Below are positions 18,022 to 55,699 of a stretch of 64,000 nt of DNA, one piece after another. Under the pieces are notes generated by a model. That model made no database searches, was not told the DNA's origin, and was given only the letters and a program-made list of their open reading frames with translations. Positions within the stretch are counted from its first letter, which is position 1; every line of letters begins with the position of its first letter. The stretch is from positions 21,756-85,755 of IMG/VR virus record IMGVR_UViG_3300015214_000029; one strand, 5' to 3'. This DNA is from a virus. Its lineage: Duplodnaviria; Caudoviricetes. The translations under genes were made by a program, and so were the position numbers.

Positions 18022-18948
18022 TCAAAGTTCCATCGCATCCGCCACCAGGGGCGCATCCAGGCTGGTGTCCAGGTACCGCTCCGTCACCGCCATCGAGGTG
18101 TGCCCCAGCATGAACTGGGCCTGCTTCATGTCGTCGGTGCGGTTGTAGAGCAGTGTTGCTGCCGAGCGGCGCAGGTCGTGAACCGAAATCTGGGGCAGAC
18201 CTGCCGCCCCCGCCCGCTTCTTGACCACCCGCCACAGCCCATTAGTCGTGATCTGCCCGTTCCACTCATCCGAGGGGGTCAGTGAGACGAAGATGCGCTC
18301 ACTGTCCCCTGCCGGGCGCAGGGCGTGCCATGTCTCAAGCAGTGCAACAGCATAGCTGGCAACCGGTACTGTGCGTACCCGGTGGTGCTTACCCTGGATG
18401 TCCTCAAACTGGGCGACGATCTTGCCCCCCATCTCCCGTTTGCGGAACTGGCCCCAGACCAGTTCCGCAACCTCAAAGACGCGCAACCCACAAGCCAGGA
18501 AGACTGCCAGGATCGCCCGGTCGCGCACCACCAGCCGCTCATCCTCGCCCTCTTCAACCGGGAAGTTAAGCAACTGCCGCATCCCTGCGGCATCCAGCCA
18601 GTTGCCCCGCTTCTGCCCGCGCACCGGAATGCTCTCGACACTCTCTGCTTTACTCGCCAGGTCTGCCGGGATCAGGCCCTCTCGCGCAGCTACCCGGAAG
18701 AACTTGCGGATAGCCGACAGCTTCTTGTTGATGGTAGCAGGCTTGTAGCCCCGCTCGCGCAGCGACCGCTTGTACGCGCCCACTGCCTGTGCCGGGGACT
18801 GAACCCCCTGCCCCGCCGAGTGTGCCAGGAACTTACGGATCTCATCCTCGTACACCTGAGCCGTCTTCTCAGAGTTGGTCTCAGCGACCACCATCTGGAT
18901 GACTGACTCAACCTGGTCATTGAACTGGGTCTTAACTATCAGGGACAT
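18022..18948 (-). CDS. Tyrosine recombinase/integrase
   Basis: Catalytic set intact: GLR, K in KHHRVR, HDLRR, LGH, RY; N-terminal SAM-like domain. Confidence 0.92.
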   Translation of the reverse strand: MSLIVKTQFNDQVESVIQMVVAETNSEKTAQVYEDEIRKFLAHSAGQGVQSPAQAVGAYKRSLRERGYKPATINKKLSAIRKFFRVAAREGLIPADLASKAESVESIPVRGQKRGNWLDAAGMRQLLNFPVEEGEDERLVVRDRAILAVFLACGLRVFEVAELVWGQFRKREMGGKIVAQFEDIQGKHHRVRTVPVASYAVALLETWHALRPAGDSERIFVSLTPSDEWNGQITTNGLWRVVKKRAGAAGLPQISVHDLRRSAATLLYNRTDDMKQAQFMLGHTSMAVTERYLDTSLDAPLVADAMEL

Positions 18949-37660: not shown

Positions 37661-38106
37661 TCTTTCAGGGCGTCCACGATCTTCCAGCCTGTGAGATAGT
37701 ACTCGCTGATGCGCTGCACTTTCGGCAGGGCAGCGTCAATGTTGTTGACAGCCGCCGCCAGGTTGTCGATCTCCACCGCTGCTGCTGCCCAGTCGAGGGC
37801 GTAATGGACATCCTGACGCAGCGTGTCAGCCCCATCCTGCTCGAAGGCAGAGTGCATGTCCAGCACGTCCTCAGCCAGATCGTACAGGGTGTCCGCCAAT
37901 CCTTCCTTGTACTCTTCAAGGGCCTTTTCTCGGGCGAACTCGGCATACTCTTGGGCCTCAACCTCATTGACGAAGAACGCCACCTCTCGGCTGGCCCCCT
38001 CGGGGTGCTGCTCCCGGACCGCATAGAACTTGATCTCCACCGTCTTGGCAGAGTGGAGGTTCACCTTGCGGCTCAGGGTCTCGGGATGCACTAGGTACTT
38101 GACCAT
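37606..38106 (-). CDS. Hypothetical protein
   Basis: Start MVKYL after AAGGAGTC RBS. Confidence 0.55.
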   Translation of the reverse strand: MVKYLVHPETLSRKVNLHSAKTVEIKFYAVREQHPEGASREVAFFVNEVEAQEYAEFAREKALEEYKEGLADTLYDLAEDVLDMHSAFEQDGADTLRQDVHYALDWAAAAVEIDNLAAAVNNIDAALPKVQRISEYYLTGWKIVDALKDVRAKLITLQADTQPAQD

Positions 38107-38360
38107 TTGATTGACTCCTTTGTCTGCCGGGGGTACTGCTCGCGCACGTACCGCTCGGCTTTGTCCAACGTGGTAAATTCTGTATCTATATACCAGCCAG
38201 CGGGCTCGGTGCCCCACTGGGGGAAGTAGATGAGGACCTGGTAGCCGTCCCCACCGGGGCGGATGAGAACATGGGATGGTTCGTTTTGACCGAGCACATG
38301 ACACCTCTTCAGCAGGGTTGGGGGTGCCTAGTGTAGCACACCCCCAGCCCCGCTAAAATG

Positions 38361-38810
38361 CTACAGCATGTGAACGACAACGCTGTAGGTTACGTCCTCG
38401 TAGTAGGCCAGCGGGAAGTGGGTCACCGCCAGGGCTGCAACGTCTTCCCTTACTTCAGCCAGGGGTGCCTCACTTCTGAAGATCCCGGTCCGGTAGTGGA
38501 TCTTGTTATCGTGGCGGGACCGGGCGACGATAGTATAGCTAAGGTGCCGTCGCAGGTCCGAGTGGTTGTGTCGGTTTTGAGGGGTCGCTGTTTGCTGCTC
38601 CAGGGCCAGGCCCAGCGCAACTACCAGGATGATCAGCCAGCCCCCGACAACAACCCCCAGGGTGGTGAGCACTCTCAGGGGTACGGGCACAAGATCCTGT
38701 GCCTGGATCAGCATAAAGAGTGCCATCAGGGTGCCAACTAGCAGGATGGCAAGGATCAGGACGCGCCCGGCGTGAATGCGACGGACCCGGGTCGTACTTG
38801 TGTGGGTCAT
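38361..38810 (-). CDS. Hypothetical membrane protein
   Basis: Two hydrophobic helices; GAGGAGTCTAGT RBS motif. Confidence 0.6.
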   Translation of the reverse strand: MTHTSTTRVRRIHAGRVLILAILLVGTLMALFMLIQAQDLVPVPLRVLTTLGVVVGGWLIILVVALGLALEQQTATPQNRHNHSDLRRHLSYTIVARSRHDNKIHYRTGIFRSEAPLAEVREDVAALAVTHFPLAYYEDVTYSVVVHML

Positions 38811-38824
38811 ACTAGACTCCTCTG

Positions 38825-39043
38825 CTATGGTAGAACAAGATAAAAGGTGGCAAGTTTCTTCAGGTCGAGGTGCAGCAGCCGCTTGCCGGTCCGCTTGTCA
38901 TGCACCTCGACCTGTTTGGCCTGTCGGCGGAATGCCTGGTGCAGCTTGACCTTGAGTAGCTGCGCCTCAGTCCGGTTCAGCCGGACCCGACTGTGTTCCT
39001 TACCGCGCCGGGTGTAGAAGATGAAGGTGACGGTGCGTTCCAT
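38825..39043 (-). CDS. Hypothetical protein
   Basis: 72-aa basic ORF. Confidence 0.5.
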   Translation of the reverse strand: MERTVTFIFYTRRGKEHSRVRLNRTEAQLLKVKLHQAFRRQAKQVEVHDKRTGKRLLHLDLKKLATFYLVLP

Positions 39044-39057
39044 GTCAGCATGGACTC

Positions 39058-39423
39058 CTAACCCAGCTTCTTGAGCAGCCGGTAGTAGTTCGGGTCCACG
39101 AACTTGAACCAGGCATGGCAGAACTGGTACAGGTCATCGATCTGCCGCCAGTCCCCGACAATGTCGCCCAGAGAGCGGATGCCGCTGTGCTGGTCATTGA
39201 TCCGGGGGTAGGTCGCCGTGTCCCGCTGGCGGATACGGTACCGCTTGGACTGTTCCCAGCCATTGCTCACCTGAACGTCGATGAAGGTCTTACCCACCCG
39301 GCGCACCCAGCTCGGGTACTCTGACTGGGTCTCAGCGAACTCTTCAAAGAGCAGGGTGTAGTTCGGGCGCTCGGGCTGGGGCTCTTCCAGCGGTATCCCC
39401 GACTTCTTCAGGCTAAACGACAT
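39058..39423 (-). CDS. Hypothetical early protein
   Basis: GAGAGGAGTC RBS motif. Confidence 0.6.
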   Translation of the reverse strand: MSFSLKKSGIPLEEPQPERPNYTLLFEEFAETQSEYPSWVRRVGKTFIDVQVSNGWEQSKRYRIRQRDTATYPRINDQHSGIRSLGDIVGDWRQIDDLYQFCHAWFKFVDPNYYRLLKKLG

Positions 39424-39503
39424 GACAGACTCCTCTCAGTCTATATGGATATACGTTCACAACCGGGCACGAGTTACCCCGTGCCCGGATGGTGAGAGCA
39501 CAT

Positions 39504-40571
39504 CTAGGCGCTGCCCAGCAGTTCGTACTGCTTGAACCGCTTGGCAGCAGAGCCCTCAAGCTGGGGACCGTAGTTGTCCGTATTGGAGTAGCCCACACCC
39601 TGTAGGATGTGAAGGACGCTCCAGAAGTGACCGCGCAGGGGGTACCACTTGCCCCGGCCCAGGTCGATCTGGTTGGTCTTCAGGTCGATGATGACGGTGC
39701 GGGGGTTCTCCCGCGCCCGGCGACGCCACTCATCCATCTTCAGGATGTATGCCTGGGCCACGTCCTCGGCGGCTGCACGGGGCAGGTAGTTGGTGTTGAA
39801 GTACCCGCTCAGGTCTACCTGCTCGATGTGCCGCTCCCAGTGGTTGCGGTCGATGTGGCGGTGATTAAACCAGGGATTTATCTTGCGCAGCTTCTCTCGC
39901 ACTGCCCGCTCGTAGTGGGGTAGGTTGACGCTGGCGAACTGGTCACGGTCCTGGTCTTTCGGCATAATCATGGCGGCATACCTGCCATCGAACAGCCAGA
40001 GCATGATACCCGCCCCGGTGTAGACCCCATCGTAAGGCTGGGCGAACACCCGGACCTTGCCCATCGGTAGCAGACCGTCGATCCACTGCTGCCGAATGAT
40101 GTGGAGTGACAGCCCGGGCCGCTGCACACTGAACTCGGCACCACCCAGGGTCTCGACCCTGGGTTCCTTCTTGGAGCCCGGCCCGTACTCGGGCGGGTCA
40201 CAGGTCAGGGTCAGGGCGTGCTCGGGAGTGCAGCGCAGATTAACCGCGTCATTGAGTCCGGCCCCTACGGTGCGCAGGGCCTTGCGCAGCGCCAGTGCAT
40301 CCGCCACAAACAGGGGGATGAGCGGGCACGTCTTGAACTGGGCCTCGACCCTCTGTTCGGCGTCCTTAGTCCAGTCCGACTCCGGCGAGGGCACGCCCAG
40401 TTCCTCGACCAGCGCCTCGACCTGGTCGTCGTCCAGTTCGTCCCCGACCACACCGTAAGCATGGGTATCTGTCATGACGAACACGGCAGGTTGCCCGCTG
40501 ATCTTGAACTGGAGTAGCAGCCTGGGGTTCTTGATCTTACGCAGGTACTTGAGATCTTCCTCGTACAGCAT
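39504..40571 (-). CDS. Hypothetical early protein
   Basis: Start MLYEE after GAGAGGAGTC RBS; promoter TTGACA-N17-TACCCT at 40658-40686. Confidence 0.65.
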   Translation of the reverse strand: MLYEEDLKYLRKIKNPRLLLQFKISGQPAVFVMTDTHAYGVVGDELDDDQVEALVEELGVPSPESDWTKDAEQRVEAQFKTCPLIPLFVADALALRKALRTVGAGLNDAVNLRCTPEHALTLTCDPPEYGPGSKKEPRVETLGGAEFSVQRPGLSLHIIRQQWIDGLLPMGKVRVFAQPYDGVYTGAGIMLWLFDGRYAAMIMPKDQDRDQFASVNLPHYERAVREKLRKINPWFNHRHIDRNHWERHIEQVDLSGYFNTNYLPRAAAEDVAQAYILKMDEWRRRARENPRTVIIDLKTNQIDLGRGKWYPLRGHFWSVLHILQGVGYSNTDNYGPQLEGSAAKRFKQYELLGSA

Positions 40572-40696
40572 GTTAGACTCCTCTCTAGTCCTCTCTCCCG
40601 GGCCGGGCACCCCGCAGGGCACCCGACCGCTTGAGAGAGGAGTTCTACCCTACCTTTAGGGTATTCGAAAACTTACGAGTTGTCAAGCAACTCATA

Positions 40697-40781
40697 GGTG
40701 GAGATGCCGGGTGTCGAACCCGGGTCCGCAAGCTTGCCGGGTTGCCCCGGGTCATTGCCCACGTCGAAGCCAGTCATCCCC
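40697..40781 (-). ncRNA. Minimal tmRNA-like RNA (tRNA-like domain only)
   Basis: GGGGATG/CATCTCC acceptor with G3-U70, A73-CC; stemless D loop ACTGGCTTCGAC; GGAC then T arm CCGGG-TTCGACA-CCCGG; mRNA-like domain replaced by CCGGG-GCAA-CCCGG. Confidence 0.85.
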
Positions 40782-40824
40782 AGATGGCTGGAGCCCACCT
40801 CAGCGGGCTCCAGGGGTCTGTAGA

Positions 40825-41445
40825 TCACTTGCTGTACACCACCGTCACGCTCTGCCAGTTCCAGTAGGCTTCCTTGAGGTGCAGCCCTTTGATACGGGCG
40901 ATCAGGGCCTCGACCTGCTGGGTATTGCGCAGCCGGTACCAGTTGCGGGTGCCGTCCTCACGTACCAGGGTGATGCGGGTCATCCGGTAGGACGTGTCCT
41001 CTGTCAGATCCAGCCGGACTTCCAGCCCGACCAGTGGGGACACCGTGAAGTTGTCCCGGTAGGTCTTGCACTGGGCATACACGAACCCGTTGTCATCTTC
41101 CCACAGGTCGATGTACTCCACGTTGTAAAGCTCGGGAAAGATGTGCCAGTCCGAGATATCCATGAACTCGGTACGCCCCGGCACCCAACGGAAGTTGAGG
41201 CACCGGCCTTCGTCATACAGGGCCCGCTCTTCATCCTCGTCTACCCAGTCGGGCAGGTTGTCCGGGTCCCAGCCGTTGAACTGGCAATACTCCCGCCAGT
41301 TCTGTTCCTCTACCTCGGGGTCGTCATATGGCTCGGGGTCGTTCAGCCAGGCATACACCTCGTAAGGCGTACACCCCTCGAACTTGCCCGGACCCCGGGC
41401 GATCCCCTCATAGTGGGCACGGACCGCAGCCTTGTGTGTACTCAT
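40825..41445 (-). CDS. Hypothetical early protein
   Basis: 206 aa, acidic; RBS motif. Confidence 0.6.
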   Translation of the reverse strand: MSTHKAAVRAHYEGIARGPGKFEGCTPYEVYAWLNDPEPYDDPEVEEQNWREYCQFNGWDPDNLPDWVDEDEERALYDEGRCLNFRWVPGRTEFMDISDWHIFPELYNVEYIDLWEDDNGFVYAQCKTYRDNFTVSPLVGLEVRLDLTEDTSYRMTRITLVREDGTRNWYRLRNTQQVEALIARIKGLHLKEAYWNWQSVTVVYSK

Positions 41446-41520
41446 ACTAGACTCCTCTCAGTCATAGGTTAATGCGTCCAGTGGTGTGCCCTACCGGGGC
41501 AGGGCACACGGCTGGCAGCA

Positions 41521-41841
41521 CTAACGGGTCGGCGATAGCGACCGGTGTTGAGCGGTCACCCGCTCGACCAGTTCGAACGGTACGCCGTCCAGACGGAAGG
41601 CACCGTTCTCGGGGATGGGGTCGGTGACGAAGTTCCCGAGCTTGACCAGGATCTCTACTGCCTTACGTCTATCTCCCCCAGCATACCGCTGGGCGAAGAC
41701 TTTGAACCCCTTACGCGCACCCCGCAGCCGCTCTTCCGGGGTCAGGTGGTGCGCCCGGGGGCTATGCCGGGAGATATGCCCGGCGATCTGCCAGCGGTTC
41801 CACCCGGTGAAGGGTCTCCCGCACACTGCACATTCTCTCAT
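41521..41841 (-). CDS. Early protein with C2H2-like zinc finger
   Basis: CAVC-x14-HISRH; GAGAGGAGTC RBS. Confidence 0.55.
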   Translation of the reverse strand: MRECAVCGRPFTGWNRWQIAGHISRHSPRAHHLTPEERLRGARKGFKVFAQRYAGGDRRKAVEILVKLGNFVTDPIPENGAFRLDGVPFELVERVTAQHRSLSPTR

Positions 41842-41976
41842 GACTCGACTCCTCTCAGGACTGTTCACACTAGACTCCCTTCTATTCAGCAATGCACTGA
41901 GGGGTGTGCCCGGTCATACTACGTTGGTCGGGTACACTGCACCCTTCCTGTAGCCCGGGCACACAGTCTCAGGGCA

Positions 41977-42285
41977 CTACTGTTCGGGCTTGTCATCCGG
42001 CAGCGTCACGCTGATGGTGATGCTGTTCAGGATGCGCTCGAACTCTTCGCCGGTCACCCGGTCCGCCTTGTCACCCCCATCGATGATGTTGAGGTGTTGC
42101 CCGGTGGTCGGGCCCCAGTCGTTTTCCCGCACGATCAGCCCCTTACCGGGGATGAACACGGCGACCGGGGTGGAGTAGGAAAACCATAGGGCAATTGGCC
42201 CCAGGTCTACCTTCATGGCGTTGTGCCGGGGTTCCGGTCGGTAGGACCGGATCTCCACCTCGTTGGCCCGTAGTTGTTTGGTCAC
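41977..42285 (-). CDS. Hypothetical early protein
   Basis: LWFSYSTPVA...GPTTGQHLN motif; AAGGAGTC RBS. Confidence 0.6.
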   Translation of the reverse strand: MTKQLRANEVEIRSYRPEPRHNAMKVDLGPIALWFSYSTPVAVFIPGKGLIVRENDWGPTTGQHLNIIDGGDKADRVTGEEFERILNSITISVTLPDDKPEQ

Positions 42286-42683
42286 GCTGACTCCTTTCCC
42301 TTTTCCAAAGCACGGATGCGGCGATTAATCTCGAACTGCACTGCACCCTCTAGGATCAGTTCACGCAGCCTGCGCAGCCCCTCGATGTTCCCTTTAAGGG
42401 CATAGTAGTGGACTACGGCAAGCACGTTGTCGGTTTGCTCATTTGCCCGCCAGCCCCAGCCCATACACCAGGGACACTTAACGTCCGAGCGGAAGTGCTT
42501 GGGGTCATCGGACCGGTAGTGTGCTTGGCAGAAGGGACATACTGTGTACTCGGGCTTGTACTCGGGCGGCTCTTCCTCGATTGAACGCACAAGCCAGTCC
42601 AAGTTGAAGTGCCGGGTCTTTTCAGTTCCCGGGTTGGTGATAGTAACCCGGACCCCGAGCGGGGTATCCTCATACTCGAACAC
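42282..42683 (-). CDS. Hypothetical early protein with CxxC pair
   Basis: CPFC...CPWC; GTG start after RBS motif. Confidence 0.55.
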   Translation of the reverse strand: MFEYEDTPLGVRVTITNPGTEKTRHFNLDWLVRSIEEEPPEYKPEYTVCPFCQAHYRSDDPKHFRSDVKCPWCMGWGWRANEQTDNVLAVVHYYALKGNIEGLRRLRELILEGAVQFEINRRIRALEKGKESA

Positions 42684-42753
42684 ACCAGACTCCTCTCTGT
42701 TAATGACCAAACGTAAGGGCTCCGGGTCACCCCCGAGCCCTACCGTTTGTCCA

Positions 42754-43650
42754 CTAACGGGCGATTCCCAACCGGACCTTCAGGTAGGCGGCGACGTACC
42801 GGCCCACCCGCTTGCTCAGGATCTTACGGCCCTCCAGAGGATCACGGTGAAAGGCAACCCAGTTGAACCCCTCGCCCGAGACCTCGTACCACAGGGATTC
42901 CTGGTCTGCCCGGCTACCCCGTTCCTCGACGGCATTGAAGACGAGCGAGGGCACCACGTACCCTTCGCGCAGGTGGCTGAGCAGGTGCTCATGCGGGTGC
43001 TCTGTTTCATACTCGGCAAGCTCGTCATTGGAGATGGCGTGCAGCAGCCGAGCCGCCTTGTTGACCTGGGCCCTCTCAGTCGAGCGCTGCTGGGCAACCA
43101 GGTCGCCCAGGGGGACGCCGGTCCCGACTTCCCGCATATAGCAATGCCAGCAGTCGCCCGCATTCGGGCGATCCAGGGTGCCGTCCTCGATGGCCTGGCG
43201 GACCTTGCGCACATAGGCATTGATCTTCTGGTTGAGCCACTTCACACGGCGCTGCTCTTCTTCACCGAACCGGGCGTTGTTATCCAGCAGGTTACCTTCC
43301 CAGTCGATGGTGAGCCCATCGTAGAACGGTACCGTATTCTGCTGCTTGACACTGAGGTACCATGCCCCCTTGTCCTGGTAGACCGAGATGTAACCGGGCA
43401 GACCCCGCAGCGCATCATTGATCCGCTGTTTAGTCGTGCTGGTCCGCCAGCCATTGGTCTGGAACTTCAGGAAGTCTGGGGTGTACAGCACTACGTCAGT
43501 GTCATGGTAGCGCACGGCGATGGCATACTTGCCCCGGCGCTGTACCCGGGTAGCCCTACCATTGGGGTAGGGACGGTCATCCGGGTCCTTGCCGCCAGCC
43601 AGGTACGCCTGTACTTCATCCCAACTTGAAGGCGAGAAACGATCAGACAT
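42754..43650 (-). CDS. Hypothetical early protein
   Basis: Start MSDRF after AAGGAGTCTAG RBS; IAVRYHDTDVV...TNGWRTSTTKQRIN. Confidence 0.65.
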   Translation of the reverse strand: MSDRFSPSSWDEVQAYLAGGKDPDDRPYPNGRATRVQRRGKYAIAVRYHDTDVVLYTPDFLKFQTNGWRTSTTKQRINDALRGLPGYISVYQDKGAWYLSVKQQNTVPFYDGLTIDWEGNLLDNNARFGEEEQRRVKWLNQKINAYVRKVRQAIEDGTLDRPNAGDCWHCYMREVGTGVPLGDLVAQQRSTERAQVNKAARLLHAISNDELAEYETEHPHEHLLSHLREGYVVPSLVFNAVEERGSRADQESLWYEVSGEGFNWVAFHRDPLEGRKILSKRVGRYVAAYLKVRLGIAR

Positions 43651-43652
43651 TG

Positions 43653-43767
43653 CTAGACTCCTTTCAGATTTGACACGGATACACTTTGCTAAACCTATGA
43701 TAACCGATCTGTGATCGGGAGTCAAGAGGCAATTAGCAGACAACCGGGCTCAAGTTACCCTGAGCCC
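43653..43767 (-). promoter_or_regulatory. Early promoter module copy 1
   Basis: TTGACT-N17-TATCAT with CCGATC-ACA-GATCGG palindrome in spacer; repeated at 44773-44884. Confidence 0.85.
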
Positions 43768-43781
43768 GGATGGTCTGATAA

Positions 43782-44258
43782 TTACCGGACGTAAGCGGTA
43801 CAGTCCCCGACCGGCACGCCTTTGGAGAGATAGCGGCGTATGGTGTAGTCGAGGCGGGCATGGGAGTAGGTGGATACGCCCCCGTTGTAGGGGTTGATCT
43901 CGTACATCCGGACGGTGACCAGGGTCCCCTGTACCCGGACGATCCAACCGGCACGCCAGCTTATGAGGGCAGCAATCACGCCGTGATCCTCATCGACGGC
44001 TTGCCAGATACCGGCCCGCCACTGGTTGGTAAGCAGGTCGGCAGCAATCACCCGGTACACCCCGAGCTGCCGACCCCCGACCACCACGTAAGCGGTCTCC
44101 AACAGGACCAGCAGCCGGTCATACTGGGAGCCCAGCAGCAGGGTATTACCTCGGGGCACCCGGTATAGCGGCTCTGTTTCCCAGTTGTTGAACTCATTGC
44201 GTTTGGCGGGGCTACGCCGGATGAAGACCCGGGGATCATGCCTTACGATGTAGTTCAT
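43782..44258 (-). CDS. Hypothetical early protein
   Basis: RBS motif then MNYIV. Confidence 0.55.
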   Translation of the reverse strand: MNYIVRHDPRVFIRRSPAKRNEFNNWETEPLYRVPRGNTLLLGSQYDRLLVLLETAYVVVGGRQLGVYRVIAADLLTNQWRAGIWQAVDEDHGVIAALISWRAGWIVRVQGTLVTVRMYEINPYNGGVSTYSHARLDYTIRRYLSKGVPVGDCTAYVR

Positions 44259-44327
44259 ACTCGACTCCTCTCTTTGCAATGGGCACACGTAAGGACCTAT
44301 GCTGACATGGGCCCTACCGTTTGACCA

Positions 44328-44771
44328 CTAGACCACGATCTCGAATTCTTCACACTCAATGTACTCACCCTCATGCCAGCCGGTGAGATCCACCATCCGA
44401 GCCAGGATGTTATACACATCCCGCAGATGGTTGGATGCGTGCCAGCGGGGAGCCCCTACCCATACCCAACCGGCTCGTGCCGGGCCGCACGCGGCGACCG
44501 GGTCCTGCCAGCGGGTGTGCGAGATCCAGAATGACCCGTTCTTATACACAACGGTCTGGACGAAGTATACCCGGTTGTTTACCCACCGGGTGCCATTCCA
44601 ACGCCAGCCGATAACCCACTCGGCGGAGCGGATACGGTCTTCTACGTCCTGGAGTTCACGCCGGGCACGCTGCCAGGTGAGCGAGCCGGGCTCAGAGCAT
44701 TTGATCCGGGCCGTGAGCCGGGCACGGCGTCGGTACGCATTCTCCAACACACGGCGACTGCTGTTGTCCAT
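44328..44771 (-). CDS. Hypothetical early protein
   Basis: RBS motif; Arg/Trp-rich. Confidence 0.55.
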   Translation of the reverse strand: MDNSSRRVLENAYRRRARLTARIKCSEPGSLTWQRARRELQDVEDRIRSAEWVIGWRWNGTRWVNNRVYFVQTVVYKNGSFWISHTRWQDPVAACGPARAGWVWVGAPRWHASNHLRDVYNILARMVDLTGWHEGEYIECEEFEIVV

Positions 44772-44772
44772 C

Positions 44773-44884
44773 CTAGACTCCTCTCAGATTTGACACGGGT
44801 ACACTTTGCTAAACCTATGATAGCCGATCTGTGATCGGGAGTCAAGCAATTAGCAGACAACTGGGCTCAAGTCACCCTGAGCCC
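44773..44884 (-). promoter_or_regulatory. Early promoter module copy 2
   Basis: Direct repeat of 43653-43767. Confidence 0.85.
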
Positions 44885-44897
44885 TACCGTTTGACCA

Positions 44898-45143
44898 CTA
44901 CCCGTACCGTGCACGCTGTATAGCCCGGTCTTTGAGCACCTGTAACAGGTCACCTTCCAGTACCGCTGCCTGGTCGCAACTCACCCGGGCCTTGTGGACT
45001 TCTGCCCGCACTGACATAGACGGATTGAACCGGGCAGTGACAACCAGTACCCAAATCCGCTTACCCGTGTAGGCATTCGTCAGGCGTGACCACTCATACT
45101 CCACCGGCACGCCAGCTACCGTAGTTTTACGGTCTTTTGGCAT
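44898..45143 (-). CDS. Hypothetical early protein
   Basis: Between hairpins, RBS motif. Confidence 0.55.
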   Translation of the reverse strand: MPKDRKTTVAGVPVEYEWSRLTNAYTGKRIWVLVVTARFNPSMSVRAEVHKARVSCDQAAVLEGDLLQVLKDRAIQRARYG

Positions 45144-45321
45144 AGCTGACTCCTCTCATTGCAATGGGCACATGTAAGGGCACCCCGATTCTGGGATGCC
45201 CTACCATGTGACCACTACTCACCCCGGATCAGACGGTCGAGCAAGTCATCCAGAGAATACCCCGCCAGGTGAGCGGGCTTGACACCATGTGCGATCTGCC
45301 AACGATCACGTCGAGTCAGCA

Positions 45322-45552
45322 TTACGCACCCCCCGGGATCAGCCGCACGTCGAATCCGGTGGCCCAGAAGTCATACCGAACCTCCCAGCCCAGGCGCTCA
45401 AGGCGCTGCCGGAAGACATACGCCCGGCCGGAGTCGAGGTGACGGTATGTGAAGTGTCCACCCTGCCGGGCAATACACACCCGGTGGTTGCCATCATGAT
45501 CCCGGCCATGCTGAAAGATCACATGCCGGATCGGACCCGTTCTCGTGCCCAT
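45322..45552 (-). CDS. Hypothetical early protein
   Basis: RBS motif. Confidence 0.5.
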   Translation of the reverse strand: MGTRTGPIRHVIFQHGRDHDGNHRVCIARQGGHFTYRHLDSGRAYVFRQRLERLGWEVRYDFWATGFDVRLIPGGA

Positions 45553-45766
45553 ATCAGACTCCTCTCAGTGTTCATCGACACACCCCGGGAGTCCATGCCA
45601 ACATGGACTCCCAGTGTTTGGCAATCAATGGGTGTACAGGTACACCCCGCCGCGCGGCCCAGTCCCCTGCTGGGTACCAGGCACCCCGAATAGGACAGAC
45701 TCCCCTGACTCTCATCGATACAGGTAAGGGCACGAGTCGCCCCGTGCCCTACCCTGTGGCAATCAG

Positions 45767-46045
45767 TTACAGGTATATCGTGACTGCCATTGTGTGCTCA
45801 CCGAACCGGGTAAGCTGGGAAAAGCTGCTATTCCGCTTGAGCACATACAGGCGAGCATACAGGTTCCCTACCCGTTTAGCGGTGAGGTAATACACCGTAG
45901 TATGCGTACCCCGCACGCCACCAAACCGGGAAAACACTACCCGGTAGGGTAGGGGATCACCGGCCGCATCAAGGGTAATGGTCACCTTCTGCAAGGGGGC
46001 CTTACGCCGGTACACGGGATTGATACCTTCACTCTTTAACCGCAT
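45767..46045 (-). CDS. Hypothetical early protein
   Basis: Between hairpins, RBS motif then MRLKS. Confidence 0.55.
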   Translation of the reverse strand: MRLKSEGINPVYRRKAPLQKVTITLDAAGDPLPYRVVFSRFGGVRGTHTTVYYLTAKRVGNLYARLYVLKRNSSFSQLTRFGEHTMAVTIYL

Positions 46046-46339
46046 GACAGACTCCTCTCCATTGAGCAATGGGTACACGTAAGGGCACCCCAGGGGGTGC
46101 CCTACCCGGTAGCGATCAAAAATACCGTACCGCGATCCGCTTGCCCTTGCGGGCCTGGTCACAGAGATACCCCGAGCTCACCCGGACCCCGGAGTCGGTG
46201 ATCCAGTGTTTACCCTGTCGGGTGACGCGGATCACTCCATCGTAGGTCTTCACCTTGTGTAGAAACATATCAGACTCCTCTCATACGCTCATTGACATAG
46301 GCAAGGGCCCGAGTCGCCCCGGGCCCTACCGTGCGGCAA

Positions 46340-46552
46340 TCAGCCGATAAATGGGCACCCGAATCGACGGTTTGGACATCCGGTGCCCGCCGCTACCTTG
46401 AACCGGGCTCCCGCCGCTGTGGGGCAGCGGTGCCAAACATACCCCGCACGCGGGGCAGTGCGGCCCGTATAGAGGTCGCCCCGGTAGTGTTCTACCGGCA
46501 GGACCCAGCCCGCGCCCAGGGCGCTCTGATATACGGCTACGATACGACGCAT
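46340..46552 (-). CDS. Hypothetical early protein
   Basis: Between hairpins, RBS motif. Confidence 0.5.
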   Translation of the reverse strand: MRRIVAVYQSALGAGWVLPVEHYRGDLYTGRTAPRAGYVWHRCPTAAGARFKVAAGTGCPNRRFGCPFIG

Positions 46553-46624
46553 TGTCTGACTCCTCTCATATGCTCATTGACACAGGTAAGGGCACCCTAC
46601 ACAGGGTGCCCTACCCTGTGGCAA

Positions 46625-46966
46625 TCAGCCCTTACGCCACAGTTTGTAGTGCCGGACTTCACCACCACGCCACGCCAGCCACGCTCTAAACTCGAAGGGT
46701 GTAAGTCGGACTCCATCGAATACCCGAATATACCGAACCTCACCCGACTCGTCGTGGACTTCAAACACTCCACGCCAGATCGTCCATTGCCCGTGCTGGT
46801 ATCCCTTGTGGAAGCGGACGTGCTGAATCTCACCTGTGTGACCAGCCCGGATCAGGTCCGCAATCTTACATAGGGTTTTCTGTCGGTAGGCAATGACTCC
46901 GGTCCCAGCGAATCCGAGTCGATTCACATACCGGACCGCATCTAGATAGTTTTCGACCTTGACCAT
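46625..46966 (-). CDS. Hypothetical early protein
   Basis: Between hairpins, RBS motif. Confidence 0.55.
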   Translation of the reverse strand: MVKVENYLDAVRYVNRLGFAGTGVIAYRQKTLCKIADLIRAGHTGEIQHVRFHKGYQHGQWTIWRGVFEVHDESGEVRYIRVFDGVRLTPFEFRAWLAWRGGEVRHYKLWRKG

Positions 46967-47037
46967 GATTGACTCCTCTCATACGCTCATTGACACAGGT
47001 AAGGACTCAGGTCACCCCGAGTCCTACCCTGTGGCAA

Positions 47038-47283
47038 TCAGCCATGCCGGACAAAAGTATAATCGTACTCTCCCGCTCCAAAGTAGTGCTTGCCATAGGG
47101 ATGCCATACCGGATCTGACTCGAACCGATCATACACGGCATACAGCAGTTCTGAGTCCTCGAAGGTGAAGTCCCAGAGGATCGTATCATCGGCATATACC
47201 CTGATACCGTCCGCCGGATCACACACCCCGCACCCGCACCCTTTATGTAGCTGTACCCGATTCGCATCGGTAAATTTAGGCAC
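47038..47283 (-). CDS. Hypothetical early protein
   Basis: Between hairpins, GTG start after AAGGAGTC. Confidence 0.5.
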   Translation of the reverse strand: MPKFTDANRVQLHKGCGCGVCDPADGIRVYADDTILWDFTFEDSELLYAVYDRFESDPVWHPYGKHYFGAGEYDYTFVRHG

Positions 47284-47383
47284 GATTGACTCCTTTTCTA
47301 GACAATAGGCACAGGTAAGGGCCCGAGTCGCCCCGGGTCCTACCCTGTGACTATCCTCAAGGACTCCACGACCTTATGGGGTG

Positions 47384-47725
47384 CTAGACAAGCACCCCAA
47401 AGATCGACTCCTCCGTGACCAGGACTGATTCCTGGCGAAACACTGCCTTGATTCGAGCCGCAAGAGTGTACACTGCGACCCGGTCCTGGGGTGTACCGCA
47501 TATCTCAACTACTGTTGAGTTTTCCCGGGCACCCTTCCAGGATCCTACGCCAGAATACAGGGTGTACCCTTCAAACTGAAGGTCCACCAGGTCGTGAAGG
47601 GTATCCCGATCATCAAGGTCTTCAGTGTATAGACGGTACCTTACACTGAGATCCGCCCGCGTCGGGACGGTATCCTCAGTGTAATCTGCGACGTATATGT
47701 TGTTGTGGATAAAGTTTTTGGACAT
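47384..47725 (-). CDS. Hypothetical early protein (possible P-II/DUF190-like fold)
   Basis: FEGYTLYSGVGSWKG...AVFRQESVLV; RBS motif. Confidence 0.5.
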   Translation of the reverse strand: MSKNFIHNNIYVADYTEDTVPTRADLSVRYRLYTEDLDDRDTLHDLVDLQFEGYTLYSGVGSWKGARENSTVVEICGTPQDRVAVYTLAARIKAVFRQESVLVTEESIFGVLV

Positions 47726-47809
47726 GACAGACTCCTCTTTATACTATAGGGCATAGGCCCATTGACACAGGTAAGGGCCCGAGCTGACCCGGGCCCTACC
47801 CTGTGGCAA

Positions 47810-48067
47810 TCAGCCGATACGCTCAAAGACCCAGATCCGCTCCCGATCCCTATTGTCCCCAGTCTTCTCGAAGGTGATACGCCAGCTCGGGTCTTGCTCG
47901 AATGCGGTCGCAATCTCTTTTATCGGTATGCGATACCGACGGAAGGTATGCCAGTTTACACTACCGTCTACATGAGTCACGCGAATCTCGTCGTAGTGAT
48001 CCTGGCACCAGTCGCAACCGCAACCGCGTCGGATCTTCACTTCTATCACAGTATTTTTTTTGGGCAT
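47810..48067 (-). CDS. Hypothetical early protein
   Basis: Between hairpins, RBS motif. Confidence 0.55.
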   Translation of the reverse strand: MPKKNTVIEVKIRRGCGCDWCQDHYDEIRVTHVDGSVNWHTFRRYRIPIKEIATAFEQDPSWRITFEKTGDNRDRERIWVFERIG

Positions 48068-48154
48068 GACAGACTCCTTCCTATGGGACATAACTCATTG
48101 ACACAGGTAAGGACTCGACGCATAAAGCGTCGAGTCCTACCCTGTGGCAATCAG

Positions 48155-48421
48155 TTAGTTGTAGTACTCTGTATCCTCGTCAAGATCCGCGTCTTCAGCC
48201 AGACTGATCTCCAACACAAGATCCAGTCGGTGCGGATCCGTTGATTCGAAGCGATATCCCCAGTCGCGCCGGATGTTGCCATAGCAACGTAGGTCTTCAC
48301 GATCTTCGAGGATCAGTCGCTTTTCAGATACAGCAATCTGGCGTGCTTCCGCTAGCGTATCTGCTGTGAAGTATGCGCCCGGAAGATATCCCGCTGTCCC
48401 AACAGTAATTACGTACTTCAT
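48155..48421 (-). CDS. Hypothetical early protein (first gene of leftward early unit)
   Basis: AAGGAGTC RBS; promoter TTGACT-N16-TATGAT at 48510-48537. Confidence 0.55.
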   Translation of the reverse strand: MKYVITVGTAGYLPGAYFTADTLAEARQIAVSEKRLILEDREDLRCYGNIRRDWGYRFESTDPHRLDLVLEISLAEDADLDEDTEYYN

Positions 48422-48685
48422 GACAGACTCCTTGAGCTATAGAGTTGTTAAAGTAGACTGACTATTTGATCTAGGATCGGCGGTCCGCGCCCGCCTCAAT
48501 CCTGCCCTGATCATATGAGTATTCGAAACAAAGTCAATCCCTTTAGAAGTGTTTTTTAGAATTTTTTTAGATCTTGTTCTATATGTTTCCTCGTGTTTTA
48601 GAACAAAATAGGCTATTTTGTTAACCGTTTATTAACCGTTGTTTTAGGACTATTTTAGTCCACAATAGGGTCGATTCGGGTCCGA

Positions 48686-48905
48686 TTCATCCTCATGCTT
48701 CATCCTCATGCTTCATCCTCATGCTTCATCCTCGTGCTTCATTCTCGTGCTCATGCCATCCTGCCATCGCGCCGGCCGGCTGCCATCGCGCCGGCCGGCT
48801 GCCATCGTGCCATCGTGCTCATTATGGTAGGGACAATGGAGCAATGGAGCAATGGAGCAATGGAGCAATGGGACAATGGAGCAATGGGACAATGGAGCAA
48901 TGGGG
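48686..48905. repeat. Tandem short-repeat arrays: 5x13 bp, 2x19 bp, 2x8 bp, then 9x8 bp CAATGG(AG/GA/GG)
   Basis: TTCATCCTCATGC x5 from 48686; CATCGCGCCGGCCGGCTGC x2 from 48765; CAATGGAG-type x9 at 48834-48905. Confidence 0.95.
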
Positions 48906-49353
48906 ATAGTCAGTAGAATGATAATTCTATTGGTTGTATCAATACAACAGATTATTATTGGTTGTATTGGTTCAATATGTGTTGCATTCTTACAACTAAA
49001 TCGTTATCTGTTGTATTGGTTCAATATGTGTTGCATCATTGCAACCAATAAATGTAATAGCATCTAAACATATCATCTTAAATGCCATATTACAGAAGTA
49101 ATAGGGTATGTTTGTTAAAGAATTCTAATCAGTAATAATAGCCGTAAGACCCGCCTACTGAGCTATTACGAGCGGTATTACATATGCCATCCCTCAGACT
49201 CACGCGAACCGGAATCGGGCCCCCTTACCCCCAAGTATGCTAATACTCTCTACATTATATAAGTCCCCATTCCGGTAACAGAGTAGCCCACTATTATAGT
49301 GGGGCAGGTTGTTACCGAAATAATGTGGCAATTTTTCCGAAAATAAATCCCAC

Positions 49354-49381
49354 TTGACTTGAGGGGGCTCTATGCTATAAT
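49354..49381 (+). promoter_or_regulatory. sigma70 promoter with extended -10
   Basis: TTGACT-N16-TATAAT with TG upstream of -10. Confidence 0.75.
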
Positions 49382-49510
49382 GTGGTTGACGTTGGACTCG
49401 CCTAAGTCCTCGCCTGCCGCCCGCTGAACCTGCCAGTTCGTTAATGCGGGCGGTTTGGCTTTCCTATAAGAACTGCTCCACTTCCCCCTAACTGTAGCAG
49501 TTTCTATAGG

Positions 49511-49539
49511 TTGACAATCTCCGGGGGCTGTCCTATACT
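49511..49539 (+). promoter_or_regulatory. sigma70 promoter
   Basis: TTGACA-N17-TATACT; similar promoters at 49931-49959, 50219-50246, 52745-52773, 53576-53603. Confidence 0.8.
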
Positions 49540-49626
49540 GAGGGGCAGGGAAGAAGAGTTGCTTACCTTTGGGGGAGAGGACTCGTGGCGGGGTTCTCTC
49601 CCCTGCGTCTTTGTGAGGAGTCAGGT

Positions 49627-49887
49627 ATGGAAACCGCTTACGAGCTTGTCCCCCTGGGATACGATGAAGACGGTTTGCCGGGCTTACAGTTGCGCATCGT
49701 GGTTCACGACTACGAGAATGCCCAGGACTTTGTCGTTTATTATGACCTGTGGATGCACGATGTCCAGGGGGACCGGGCTCCCGACGAGTGGGGCTGGGAG
49801 CCGCACAAGCAGTTCATCGACCTGCTCTGTACTGAGGGAGTGGAAGCAGCAGCCCTGTGGCAGCTTCAATATAGGAACTTCAGGTGA
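49627..49887 (+). CDS. Hypothetical protein
   Basis: GAGGAGTC RBS then METAY. Confidence 0.55.
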   Translation: METAYELVPLGYDEDGLPGLQLRIVVHDYENAQDFVVYYDLWMHDVQGDRAPDEWGWEPHKQFIDLLCTEGVEAAALWQLQYRNFR

Positions 49888-49998
49888 ACGCCTGTTCTGG
49901 TAAATAGGATCTAAATAAGGGGTGGATGTATTGACAGGCTGTAGGGCTCCCCTTATGATAAGGTTAGGATTGTATGAGTATTGGGGGAGAGGCGAGCA

Positions 49999-50217
49999 AT
50001 GACAGTCGTAGAAGGGTACCGGGTTGATGAGACGAAGGCGCATGTCCAGATTACCTTCGATAACGGCAGGGCGATGACTATAGAGGTCAACCTTCTCAAC
50101 GACGACCGGGATCTGGACCAGATCGTCTCCGATATTGCGGACGAGGCGATTGGCAAGGGGCGCTGGAAGCAGGAAATGTTGGTCTATGCCATCTTCAACG
50201 GGGAGCCGTTGGATTGA
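49999..50217 (+). CDS. Hypothetical protein
   Basis: GAGAGG RBS then MTVVE. Confidence 0.55.
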   Translation: MTVVEGYRVDETKAHVQITFDNGRAMTIEVNLLNDDRDLDQIVSDIADEAIGKGRWKQEMLVYAIFNGEPLD

Positions 50218-50365
50218 GTTGACAGCCCGCTAAAAATAAATATACTTCTAAATGAAACGAACAGCCCTCGCCACTGGGGGCTGTTTCGCAATAGGCGGGC
50301 TGCGCCGTCTCCTCTACTTCCCCCTCGCCCGCTCGCGTACCTTTATCACAAGAGGCAAGGGAGCA

Positions 50366-51593
<1,228 letters not shown>

Positions 51594-53700: not shown

Positions 53701-53830
53701 TAGAGCGGGTCGCTGGGTGACGGTAATCGGAAACTTGGGTTCGACCCCCAGGCGGCTGGCGTGGCAGAGGTCGCGCTACCGACCGTCCTTAATGGACAAT
53801 AATCTCGTTGCTCGATCTTTATCCGCTCTA
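53701..53830 (+). ncRNA. Y RNA-like 2 (YrlA type, with T-arm)
   Basis: TAGAGCGGGTCG...TTTATCCGCTCTA terminal stem; TGGG-TTCGACC-CCCA T-arm. Confidence 0.75.
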
Positions 53831-53847
53831 ATCTTTACTAACTGTAT

Positions 53848-53989
53848 AGCGGCGGGTCGCTGTAGAACGGTTATCCACTGTAACTGGGAAGGTTGCGGGT
53901 TCGAATCCCGCCCGGACCCCTTACATGGGTCCGGTAGCTCAACAGGCAGAGCGTCTAAAAAACTCGTTCTCGATCACTTATCCGCCGCT
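53848..53989 (+). ncRNA. yrlA: Y RNA-like 3 (YrlA, permuted tRNA-like domain)
   Basis: T arm GCGGG-TTCGAAT-CCCGC, closed acceptor CCGGACCC-CTTACAT-GGGTCCGG, D arm GCTC-AACAGGCA-GAGC inside AGCGGCGGGTCG...CTTATCCGCCGCT stem. Confidence 0.88.
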
Positions 53990-53999
53990 CCGACAATAA

Positions 54000-54076
54000 A
54001 AAGGAACCGGGTCGAAGGCTGTCGGTTATCTACTGAGAAGAGAACCCCGATAACCACAAACCTATCCGGTTCCTTT
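54000..54076 (+). ncRNA. Y RNA-like 4 (short)
   Basis: AAAGGAACCGGGTCG...CCTATCCGGTTCCTTT terminal stem; GGTTATC/GATAACC inner stem. Confidence 0.75.
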
Positions 54077-54100
54077 CGTTTGTCGGGGAAAGGGAGAGCC

Positions 54101-55699
54101 ATGCCATACGGTAAGCATTTCAACCTTCGTCAGACCCCCCAGGACCAGCCCATTCCGGGCAGCGGTCAGGTCAAGAACTCGGCAGGCGGGTATGCGTGGC
54201 AGATCTCTCCCTGGGAGCGGCTGACTCGCTTCCTGATCCTGGGTACCGAGGGGGGCACGTACTACGCCTCGGAGCGGGCCTTGACCATCGAGAACGCAGA
54301 GAACGTCTGGGCCTGCCTGAACCTCGACCCCAAGCGGGTGGTGGATGAGACCATTGCCGTCTCAGACGCGGGACGTGCGCCCAAGAACTCTCCGGCGCTC
54401 TTCGTCATGGCGATGGCGTGCAGTGAGGTCTTCGTGAGTGACCAAGTGCTGCGCGAGTATGCGCTCGACCGGCTGGAGCAGGTGGCCCGCACGCCGACCC
54501 ACCTCTTTGAGTTCCTGGGCTACGTGCTCGGGTTCCGCAAGTGGGGGCGTGGGCTGCGTAACGCCGTTGCTCGCTGGTATAACGGGCATACACCCGAGAA
54601 CCTGGTCTACCACTTGGTGAAGTATCGCCAGCGGGCGGGCTGGACGCACAGGGACGTGCTGCGCGTGGTTCACCCGACGCCGGTCTCAGAGGCGCACTCG
54701 ACGCTCTATAACTGGGCGATCCGGGGCGAGGCAGACATAGACAAGCTGGGCGACCAGGCTCTCCTGGTGCTGGAAGGCTATCACCGGGCACAGGCGGCGA
54801 CGACCCCAGAGCGGTGGGTTGAGATCATCAAGGCGTACAACCTGCCGCGCGAGGCGCTGCCGACCCAGGCCCTCTCGCACCCGCAGGTGTGGGCGGCGCT
54901 GCTGGAGACCGGGATGCCGGTCATGGCATTGACCCGTAACCTCGCCAACCTCGGGCGGAACGGGGTTATCGGCCCGGGCTTGTGGGATACCAACCAGCTG
55001 GTGGTCTCGGCGCTCAGCAATGATGAGGTGATCCGCCGCTCGCGGATGCACCCCATCCACTTCCTGCTGGCGCTGCGCATTTACACGCGGGGCTACAACA
55101 ACCGGGGTCGCTGGGTGCCCGAGCCCAGCATCCGGGATGCGCTGGAAGGGGCGTACTACAAGGCGTTCGGTAATATCGATCCGACCGGCAAGCGCATCGT
55201 CATCGGCCTGGATGTGTCGGGCTCAATGGACTACATGACCATTCCGGGGCTGGAAGCGTTCACGGCTCGGGATGGCGCAGTAGCTATGGCGATGGCAACG
55301 GTGCGCACGGAGCCCTACACGGCTGTCTATGCTTTTGGGTCGAGGCTGCAAAAGCTGGGCATCGGCAAGAACGACCGGCTGAGTACCGTGCTCAAGAAGA
55401 CCAAGATGAACTTTGGCGGGACGGATGCGGCACTGCCCATCCTCCAGGCGCTCCAGGACCGGACGCAGGTGGATGCTTTTATCACCTACACGGACAACGA
55501 GACCTGGGCAGGGGCGGTTCATCCGGCACAGGCGCTCCAGCGGTACCGGGAAGAGATGGGCATCCCGGCGAAGCTGATCGTGGTTGGCATGACTTCAACC
55601 GGCTTCAGCATCGCAGACCCGAACGATGCGGGGATGCTGGATGTCGTGGGGTTCGATGCGAACACCCCCCAGGCGATCTCGGAGTTCATTCGCCTGTAG
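54101..55699 (+). CDS. rsr: Ro60/Rsr (TROVE plus vWA) RNA-binding protein
   Basis: VKNSAGGY, RFLILGTEGGTYY, KYRQRAGWTHRDVLR, MALTRNLANL, LDVSGSM, GGTDAALP, YTDNETW. Confidence 0.95.
   Translation: MPYGKHFNLRQTPQDQPIPGSGQVKNSAGGYAWQISPWERLTRFLILGTEGGTYYASERALTIENAENVWACLNLDPKRVVDETIAVSDAGRAPKNSPALFVMAMACSEVFVSDQVLREYALDRLEQVARTPTHLFEFLGYVLGFRKWGRGLRNAVARWYNGHTPENLVYHLVKYRQRAGWTHRDVLRVVHPTPVSEAHSTLYNWAIRGEADIDKLGDQALLVLEGYHRAQAATTPERWVEIIKAYNLPREALPTQALSHPQVWAALLETGMPVMALTRNLANLGRNGVIGPGLWDTNQLVVSALSNDEVIRRSRMHPIHFLLALRIYTRGYNNRGRWVPEPSIRDALEGAYYKAFGNIDPTGKRIVIGLDVSGSMDYMTIPGLEAFTARDGAVAMAMATVRTEPYTAVYAFGSRLQKLGIGKNDRLSTVLKKTKMNFGGTDAALPILQALQDRTQVDAFITYTDNETWAGAVHPAQALQRYREEMGIPAKLIVVGMTSTGFSIADPNDAGMLDVVGFDANTPQAISEFIRL

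Follow-up and report, generated by a model that had tools for sequence, protein, structure and literature searches.

Covarying hairpins at the gene junctions of a phage early operon as candidate RNA-processing sites and homology patches for gene shuffling

In a window of 64,000 nucleotides from a phage of the Caudoviricetes (IMG/VR virus record IMGVR_UViG_3300015214_000029), we analyzed a repeated hairpin that lies at the junctions between small early genes. The window, i.e., the whole stretch of DNA under analysis, runs from base 21756 to base 85755 of the virus record, which is complete, 85,755 bp long and has direct terminal repeats; coordinates are window positions unless stated otherwise. 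The genes of this phage run in both directions away from a repeat-filled, AT-rich region at 48.45-49.5 kb, and the finding is confined to the leftward arm; thus, the coding strand is the minus strand. A scan for ribosome-binding sites (RBS) and start codons identified 15 small early genes of 35-298 aa in this arm (42282..48421, minus strand). The first eight are 48155-48421, 47810-48067, 47384-47725, 47038-47283, 46625-46966, 46340-46552, 46116-46268 and 45767-46045, and the remaining seven are 45322-45552, 45215-45322, 44898-45143, 44328-44771, 43782-44258, 42754-43650 and 42282-42683. The RBS GAGAGGAGTC stands 5-8 nt ahead of the start codon in each early gene, and the GC content by codon position is typical of coding sequence. 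The operon starts at a sigma70-like promoter, P1 (TTGACT-16-TATGAT, 48510..48537, minus strand); the only other leftward promoters are P2 (44845-44817) and P3 (43725-43697).

The genes themselves have little in common. Family searches of the early proteins matched almost none of them, and the genes are mutually unrelated except for one 36%-identical pair, 47038-47283 and 47810-48067. The hairpins are far more alike than the genes between them. Tandem gene duplication was considered as the origin of the array and was rejected: because the genes between the hairpins are unrelated apart from this one pair, the repeats are not a by-product of such duplication. The GC content at third codon positions (GC3) is 0.51-0.77 in the early genes versus 0.78-0.81 in core genes (polymerase, helicase, Ro60), and the low GC3 of the cassette genes would fit recent acquisition from lower-GC sources. 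Toward the promoter-proximal end GC3 drops, to 0.51-0.62 at 46.6-48.4 kb. The two related proteins have an N-terminal MPK...GCGC..C motif in common, which suggests a small zinc-binding protein.

To define the repeat, we built a covariance model, R1, on the 11 full copies and scanned the whole 85,755-bp genome. The model recovers the 11 full copies with 57-82 bits (E 1e-12 to 3e-19) and three partial copies; all matches are on the minus strand at 42.7-48.2 kb, the hairpins are 60-67 nt long, and there is no further match elsewhere in the genome. A first-pass annotation of this DNA, made from the letters alone, had counted about 11 copies, and this number stands, with one of them (h42) lying beyond the array as it was first delimited. 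Two subfamilies, A and B, can be distinguished. Type B includes h48 (48091..48157, R1 match 48088-48160, 72.4 bits; folding energy -46.5 kcal/mol, z -11.1), in which the first 3 nt are the TAA stop of gene 48155-48421 and the upper stem has 12 bp; h47b (47755..47816, match 47752-47819, 82.4 bits; -47.2 kcal/mol, z -6.8), whose base contains the TGA stop of gene 47810-48067; h46d (46983..47044, match 46980-47047, 79.2 bits; -42.1 kcal/mol, z -7.9; GUGA loop), h46c (46570..46631, match 46567-46634, 81.6 bits; -43.5 kcal/mol, z -7.8) and h46b (46285..46346, match 46282-46349, 70.7 bits; GCGA loop), each with a TGA stop in the base; and h45b (45708..45769, match 45705-45772, 72.7 bits; GCGA loop), with a TAA stop in the base. 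Type A comprises h45a (45158..45221, match 45155-45224, 64.2 bits; -42.0 kcal/mol, z -8.0), h44a (44273..44334, match 44270-44337, 61.9 bits) and h42 (42697..42760, match 42694-42763, 63.4 bits; -41.5 kcal/mol, z -8.3; GUGA loop), all with a TAG stop in the base. The copy h47a (47299..47360, match 47296-47363, 74.1 bits; GCGA loop) has an outer stem, AUAG/CUAU, that is compensatory to both subfamilies, and it is the sole copy in which the stop codon lies 24 nt upstream. The last full copy, h46a (46063..46122, match 46060-46125, 57.3 bits; -24.3 kcal/mol, z -2.3), is a chimera.

The partial matches are of two kinds. A degenerate variant at 45565..45634 (minus strand, 21.6 bits, -33.3 kcal/mol) is an inverted repeat without the GGUAGG/CCUUAC internal-loop motif. 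It lies with h45b in a gap of 214 nt (45553-45766) that also contains GGGGAGTCTGTC, an RBS-like word that no start codon follows, and the gap is likely to be the remnant, or ghost, of a lost cassette. The other two are composite units on the minus strand: h44b (44772..44900, partial match 44840-44907, 34.4 bits) joins a type-A 5' arm with a GUGA-capped hairpin to P2 (TTGACT-17-TATCAT) and an RBS, and h43 (43651..43784, partial match 43723-43791, 28.2 bits) consists of a GUAA-capped hairpin, P3 and an RBS. They represent one unit of ~120 nt that is present twice (43653-43770 and 44773-44897) with 95-96% identity. By its make-up, h44b is evidently a recombinant in which a type-A 5' arm was fused to the promoter cassette.

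Read on the sense strand from the base upward, the hairpin has 3-5 pairs that include the upstream stop codon (type A, TAGugg; type B, TGAuug), a G.G mismatch found only in type B, four pairs, a 1x1 pyrimidine mismatch, six pairs, the 2x2 internal loop 5'-GU/UA-3', 10-12 pairs of upper stem and an apical loop of 4-6 nt. The helix totals 23-30 positions, with 13-17 in the lower stem. The internal loop marks its centre, 11-17 positions above the base and separated from the apical loop by 10-12 bp. In most copies the upper stem has exactly 10 bp, with a sequence that varies freely. The interruptions are kept and never turn into pairs: the 2x2 loop consists in all copies of G.A (once G.G) and U.U, and the 1x1 site is C.U in six copies, U.C in three, C.C in one and A.G in one (h42). 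Around the loop, GGUAGG/CCUUACC is invariant in 11/11 copies of both subfamilies, while the adjoining stems vary. The first-pass annotation had proposed a conserved internal loop and a purine-purine mismatch; both elements are indeed kept, but on the sense strand the loop reads 5'-GU/UA-3' and the mismatch is mostly pyrimidine-pyrimidine.

Selection acts on the structure of the hairpin. In the alignment, 88.7% of the cells pair, compared to 31-48% in slid controls; 13 of the 25 pairs changed on both sides, a count reached by one of 500 shuffles, and the other four of five covariation measures were reached by none of the 500. RNAalifold, run without a supplied structure, returned the identical helix with 11 compensated pairs. 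One outer-stem position shows three different Watson-Crick pairs (U-A, G-C and A-U), and one upper-stem position is A-U in four copies, C-G in four and U-A in three. The stem exchanges reported in the first pass, i.e., ATTG/CAAT to ATAG/CTAT and GTGG/CCAT, CACAGG to CACATG, and GGGCAC to GGACTC, were all confirmed, and its claim that structure is under selection is borne out by the pairing, the double changes, the shuffles and RNAalifold alike. Folding energies range from -24 to -47 kcal/mol, with z scores from -2.3 to -11. Strain variants in contigs of other metagenomes also tend to preserve pairing: at 44298, in h44a, C instead of T is found in 4/4 other runs and restores a pair, and at 47008/47013 an insertion and a deletion occur together.

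All tests of strand agree that the sense strand appears to be the one that folds. The minus strand has 18 G.U cells versus 5 on the plus strand, in 15 of 17 early intergenic hairpins it gives the more stable fold (Wilcoxon p 2.5e-4), and GNRA apical loops (GCGA, GUGA, GUAA) are found on it in 8 of the 17. The hairpins match no Rfam family and no ribozyme; the only match in that database was a sub-threshold, microRNA-shaped one on the wrong strand. The surroundings of the hairpin are equally regular. In 10/11 copies the 5' base holds the stop codon of the upstream gene, a strong RBS, GAGAGGAGUC, follows ~10-20 nt past the hairpin, and the start codon comes next; most gaps have one hairpin copy, seven intergenic gaps measure 69-72 nt, and the RBS is free of sequestration in every predicted fold. 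The placement after a stop codon and before GAGAGGAGTC had been noted in the first pass and is correct on the minus strand, where the genes lie, but that description was of the non-coding plus strand. With the stop codon in the base and the RBS just outside, an RNA role would seem to fit best.

Among public DNA runs, a landfill run carries the stretch best, and parts of it are present in 21 further public runs from 12 other studies. We placed Logan contigs of four other runs (soil, compost, wastewater and one unspecified metagenome) on window positions 38000-50500; these are contigs, not complete genomes, and one of the runs (X10) is labelled RNA-Seq, is rated as probably DNA and is represented by contigs only. 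At the joint 47815>48161 (run X3), exactly the gene 47810-48067 and one hairpin are missing, with a shorter side of 98 letters. In run X2, the joint 47350>48092 connects h47a to h48, and the joint 47381>48419 skips three genes. The joint 46065>45161, found in X3 and X10 and thus in two studies, brings the gene 45767-46045 to a place immediately after h45a, and the two sides have 8 letters in common at the crossover; this joint, which goes back along the window, fits a circle and a tandem duplication equally well. At 42267>42687 (X2 and X10, two studies), the gene 42282-42683 is replaced by 27 other letters. Within the array, 15 of 21 joint ends are in hairpin units, which make up 24% of the array bases (binomial p ~6e-6). 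Crossovers occur at differing points of the units, with shared letters, as would fit homologous recombination between repeats of the kind proposed for promoter-early stem-loop (PeSL) cassettes. The genome itself bears scars of such exchange: h46a, in which the 5' arm is B-like, the 3' arm is A-like and the lower stem is poorly paired, and the 214-nt gap with its two hairpins and an RBS that lacks a start codon. Like h46a, h44b is a chimeric unit. At the population level, the units act as homology patches, at which single ORFan genes are deleted, duplicated, replaced and reordered. The first-pass annotation had seen in this stretch a gene-cassette-like array whose hairpins would be ordinary terminators if no RNA ends mapped to them and gene order were fixed among relatives; the order compared across these strains is not fixed, and the contigs delete, replace and reorder genes with joints in the hairpin units. 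Two further differences were also observed: at 38366>38855 (one study) the gene 38361-38810 is missing or replaced, the replacements across both such genes being 16-27 letters, and a 39-nt duplication is present at 45307-45345 in two studies.

The closest design for gene exchange is that of the PeSL cassettes of T4-type phages (Arbiol et al. 2010, PMC2839356; Comeau et al. 2014, PMC4122927). As in PeSLs, a repeated motif with a stable stem-loop and a 3' Shine-Dalgarno (SD) sequence fills the gap from stop codon to ATG; the region is plastic and the genes beside the motifs are ORFans, close relatives differ by indels and replacements whose ends lie in the motifs, and some motifs are left chimeric. 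Unlike PeSLs, in which each motif holds a strong sigma70-like early promoter, 11 of the 13 units have no promoter, and only the ~120-nt units at 43.7 and 44.8 kb carry one; h43 and h44b are the only strictly PeSL-like elements of the leftward arm. The hairpin is also three times longer than that of PeSLs and has the invariant internal loop and mismatch, the mini-circles of PeSLs would correspond here at most to joints such as 46065>45161, and the phage is not T4-like, having a genome of 86 kb, a family A polymerase and a nearest relative binned with a Bellilinea metagenome-assembled genome. Among the recombination mechanisms raised in the first pass, the PeSL comparison holds up best, apart from the promoter that is missing from 11/13 units.

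For the hairpin itself, the closest resemblance is to the early RNase III signals of T7 and T3 (e.g., R1.1), which are likewise conserved hairpins of ~60 nt between early cistrons of one transcript. The T7 early sites described by Dunn and Studier in 1983 reportedly share the same layout, with a central loop and two helical turns. Here, too, there are ~two turns (~22 bp) of sense-strand double-stranded RNA (23-30 positions) with a central internal loop, which in T7 gives a single cut and a stabilising 3' hairpin. The differences are in the loop, which is a small symmetric 2x2 loop (G.A, U.U) here and is larger and asymmetric in T7, in the number of sites (11-14 versus 5), and in the fact that the sites also border gene exchange. 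The idealised RNase III substrate has 22 bp, and loops or mismatches at the target result in single-strand cleavage and a stabilising 3' hairpin (PMC3867540). RNase III-type processing is thus compatible with the geometry of the hairpins.

We lean, with modest confidence, toward a reading in which the intercistronic RNA hairpins are both RNase III-type processing or stability sites and homology patches for a PeSL-like shuffling of ORFans. Each unit is a complete junction of the leftward early operon, i.e., stop codon, hairpin, RBS and start codon. The hairpin would fold in the sense transcript from P1 (48.5 kb), P2 (44.8 kb) or P3 (43.7 kb) and act as a signal for mRNA processing or stability of the T7 RNase III-site type: a cut at the central internal loop, across ~two helical turns, would leave a protective 3' hairpin on the upstream message, and the same cut would free the next cistron. 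Since unrelated genes are separated by one and the same sequence of 60-70 nt, the units serve as homology patches, and recombination would exchange single ORFans with expression left intact. One portable junction supplies the stop codon, the RNA structure and the translation start, and the PeSL idea extends to promoterless junctions inside an operon, in a lineage far from T4. It is only partly understood how phages acquire and discard small early genes, many of them likely with host-takeover or anti-defence functions, without damage to the operon, and the array is a clean natural case in which landfill, soil, compost and wastewater strains differ in gene content at the same junction. It also offers a candidate processing or protein-binding signal in the form of a sharply defined RNA element, marked by a G.A/U.U loop that never varies, a pyrimidine mismatch that is kept and an upper stem of 10 bp.

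Several points weigh against this reading. First, we infer RNase III cleavage from geometry and analogy; the phage has no RNase III gene of its own. Second, RNase III needs little sequence specificity and leaves the invariant GGUAGG/CCUUACC unexplained, which hints at a sequence-specific partner. Third, the evidence for conservation consists of copies in one genome and strain-level contigs, and the copies share ancestry, such that the tests of strand bias overstate independence. Moreover, G.T pairs and GNRA-like loops would also stabilise single-stranded DNA of the same strand, and if replication starts near 48.8 kb, as GC skew suggests, the template of lagging-strand synthesis would be the minus strand. 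Finally, the enrichment of joints in the units is inflated by two effects: an indel that leaves the phage viable has to end between genes in any case, and short contig ends can be drawn to the repeated arms.

The same position between cistrons would also suit hairpins that act as attenuators or terminators without a U tract and as passive blocks to 3' exonucleases, with no endonucleolytic processing; expression would be graded down the operon and restored by P2 and P3. We regard this as unlikely, but as the alternative with the most in its favor. The stems are G+C-rich and stable, two internal promoters lie directly behind hairpins, and in a reporter assay transcription was terminated by PeSL stem-loops even though these lacked a classical tail (PMC2839356). 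However, none of the hairpins has a T tail: the 11 units contain no sigma70-like promoter and no T-tailed terminator, and the test for intrinsic terminators found no U tract after any hairpin. In addition, eight hairpins lie between P1 and P2, where efficient termination would silence most genes, and termination gives no reason for an internal loop that never varies, a mismatch that is retained or an upper stem fixed at 10 bp.

A sequence-specific partner stays a serious rival, because RNase III leaves the invariant GGUAGG/CCUUACC unexplained. In its explicit form, which we consider distinctly improbable, the hairpin is the site of an RNA-binding protein of the phage or the host that controls translation or the coupling of termination and reinitiation, with the stem bringing the stop codon beside the downstream RBS; a comparable proposal exists for the SAS/ESAS repeats of Cluster K mycobacteriophages (Pope et al. 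2011, PMC3203893). The invariance of the motif in 11/11 copies with varying adjoining stems, the stop codon in the base with the RBS just outside, and the uniform unit length are all as expected for such a site, and the SAS/ESAS repeats provide the analogy: they have a conserved, SD-containing word before starts, after imperfect inverted repeats with a variable spacer, and are found at non-structural genes only and in one orientation. Conversely, the early proteins match almost no family and so yield no candidate, and the RBS is not sequestered in any predicted fold. The two systems differ in sequence, which is unrelated (the word is GAGAGGAGTC here versus the 13-bp GGGATAGGAGCCC), in host group, in the arms (~25 nt with a covarying centre versus 17 bp), and in the stop codon within the element and the strain-level shuffling seen here.

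In DNA-level explanations, the strand that folds would also be the template for the lagging strand at a fork that leaves 48.8 kb. In one variant, the hairpins fold in this template and are cut and rejoined by an unrecognised enzyme, resulting in an integron-like capture of ORFan circles without an integrase; we consider this very unlikely. The RNA fold of the same sequence would then ensure expression of each captured gene. Less probable still is the variant with strand-specific, attC-like recombination sites in single-stranded DNA, at which a dedicated recombinase moves ORFan cassettes as circles. As in attC arrays, the hairpins are imperfect palindromes whose outer parts are conserved and whose centre varies but stays paired, and the ORFs between them lack promoters and all point the same way. 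The single orientation of all copies, strand-specific folding and kept helix interruptions also speak for this variant, and joints that go back, e.g., 46065>45161, are expected from a circle or a tandem duplication. Yet the attC core sites R''/R' (RYYYAAC / GTTRRRY) are absent from the hairpin arms, and there are no bulged or extrahelical bases, only the symmetric 1x1 and 2x2 interruptions; an integron integrase and an attI/Pc platform are also lacking in this phage. The single tyrosine recombinase (18022-18948) is Xer-like, lies 24 kb from the array and scores 28.7 bits with TIGR02249 versus a cut-off of 265; no Y1 transposase is present. Crossovers at differing unit points with homology, as in homologous recombination, and a stop codon and RBS on each site, which fit an RNA role, also argue against such sites. 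The suggestion in the first-pass annotation that the hairpins are attC-like sites used by the phage tyrosine recombinase is therefore not supported; the array is a new form of the phage design known from T4-like phages and T7, and not an attC array. Close to the recombinase, at 19.0 and 20.8 kb, there are loxP-like repeats; these were considered and belong to a repeat family different from the hairpins.

A self-spreading, REP/MITE-like element moved by a host transposase would account for copies that are much more alike than the genes they separate. We give it slightly less credence than attC-like sites: the Y1 (HUH) transposase, PF01797, is absent from the phage, R1 has no match to IS200/IS605 ends, and the copies are in one operon, in one orientation and in one fixed place relative to the stop codon and RBS, signals that they supply themselves. 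Furthermore, neither 65 metagenome loci nor IMG/VR yielded a copy; searches with the hairpin motif gave two chance matches only in IMG/VR and 65 single matches in JGI metagenome contigs, none above 24 bits with R1. Double-stranded DNA operators of a dimeric repressor, to which the conserved inverted half-sites might point, were rejected as having next to no likelihood, on a half-site spacing that varies from 22 to 29 bp, a sequence-variable centre that stays complementary via double changes, half-sites that differ from each other identically in all copies, and strand-biased G.U pairing.

Searches with blastn and tblastn among cultured phages found no relative of this phage at the nucleotide or terminase level. 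The nearest homologues of the polymerase, which belongs to family A (66% identity), and of the 298-aa early protein (41%) are on one 75-kb contig binned as Bellilinea sp.; this binning suggests that the host of the phage may be in the Anaerolineae (Chloroflexota). Protein-led searches with the 298-aa protein, the polymerase and the homologues P0002 and P0013 reached only distant loci (L009, L075, L076), without such hairpins.

Other features of the genome were noted outside the array. The gene-free strand-switch region at 48450-49550 is AT-rich (GC 0.48) and contains a tandemly repeated 13-mer (48686-48750), repeats of the 8-mer GGAGCAAT/GGGACAAT (48822-48919) and repeats of 45 nt (48955-49048); consensus promoters point outward on both sides of it, and the GC skew turns there. 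The region is probably the replication origin and early control region. At 53717-55699, there is a gene for a Ro60/TROVE protein with a vWA domain, and the sequence before it (53864-53973) gives a sub-threshold match to a YrlA-like Y RNA (42 bits versus a gathering score of 69). Bacterial Ro60 with Y RNA recruits PNPase to structured RNA, and a tie between Ro60/Y RNA and the structured early transcripts is speculation on our part. Elsewhere in the leftward arm, an intergenic gap holds a tmRNA match of 70 bits at 40696-40781, to the tRNA-like part only. Further intergenic hairpins of like architecture and other sequence are found on the minus strand at 39450..39503, 41466-41520 and 41880-41976. 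They are in the gaps 39424-39503, 41446-41520 and 41842-41976, as long interrupted hairpins that begin at a stop codon (TAGUG...), and the one at 39.4 kb has a GUAA loop, is h43-like and covaries with h43.

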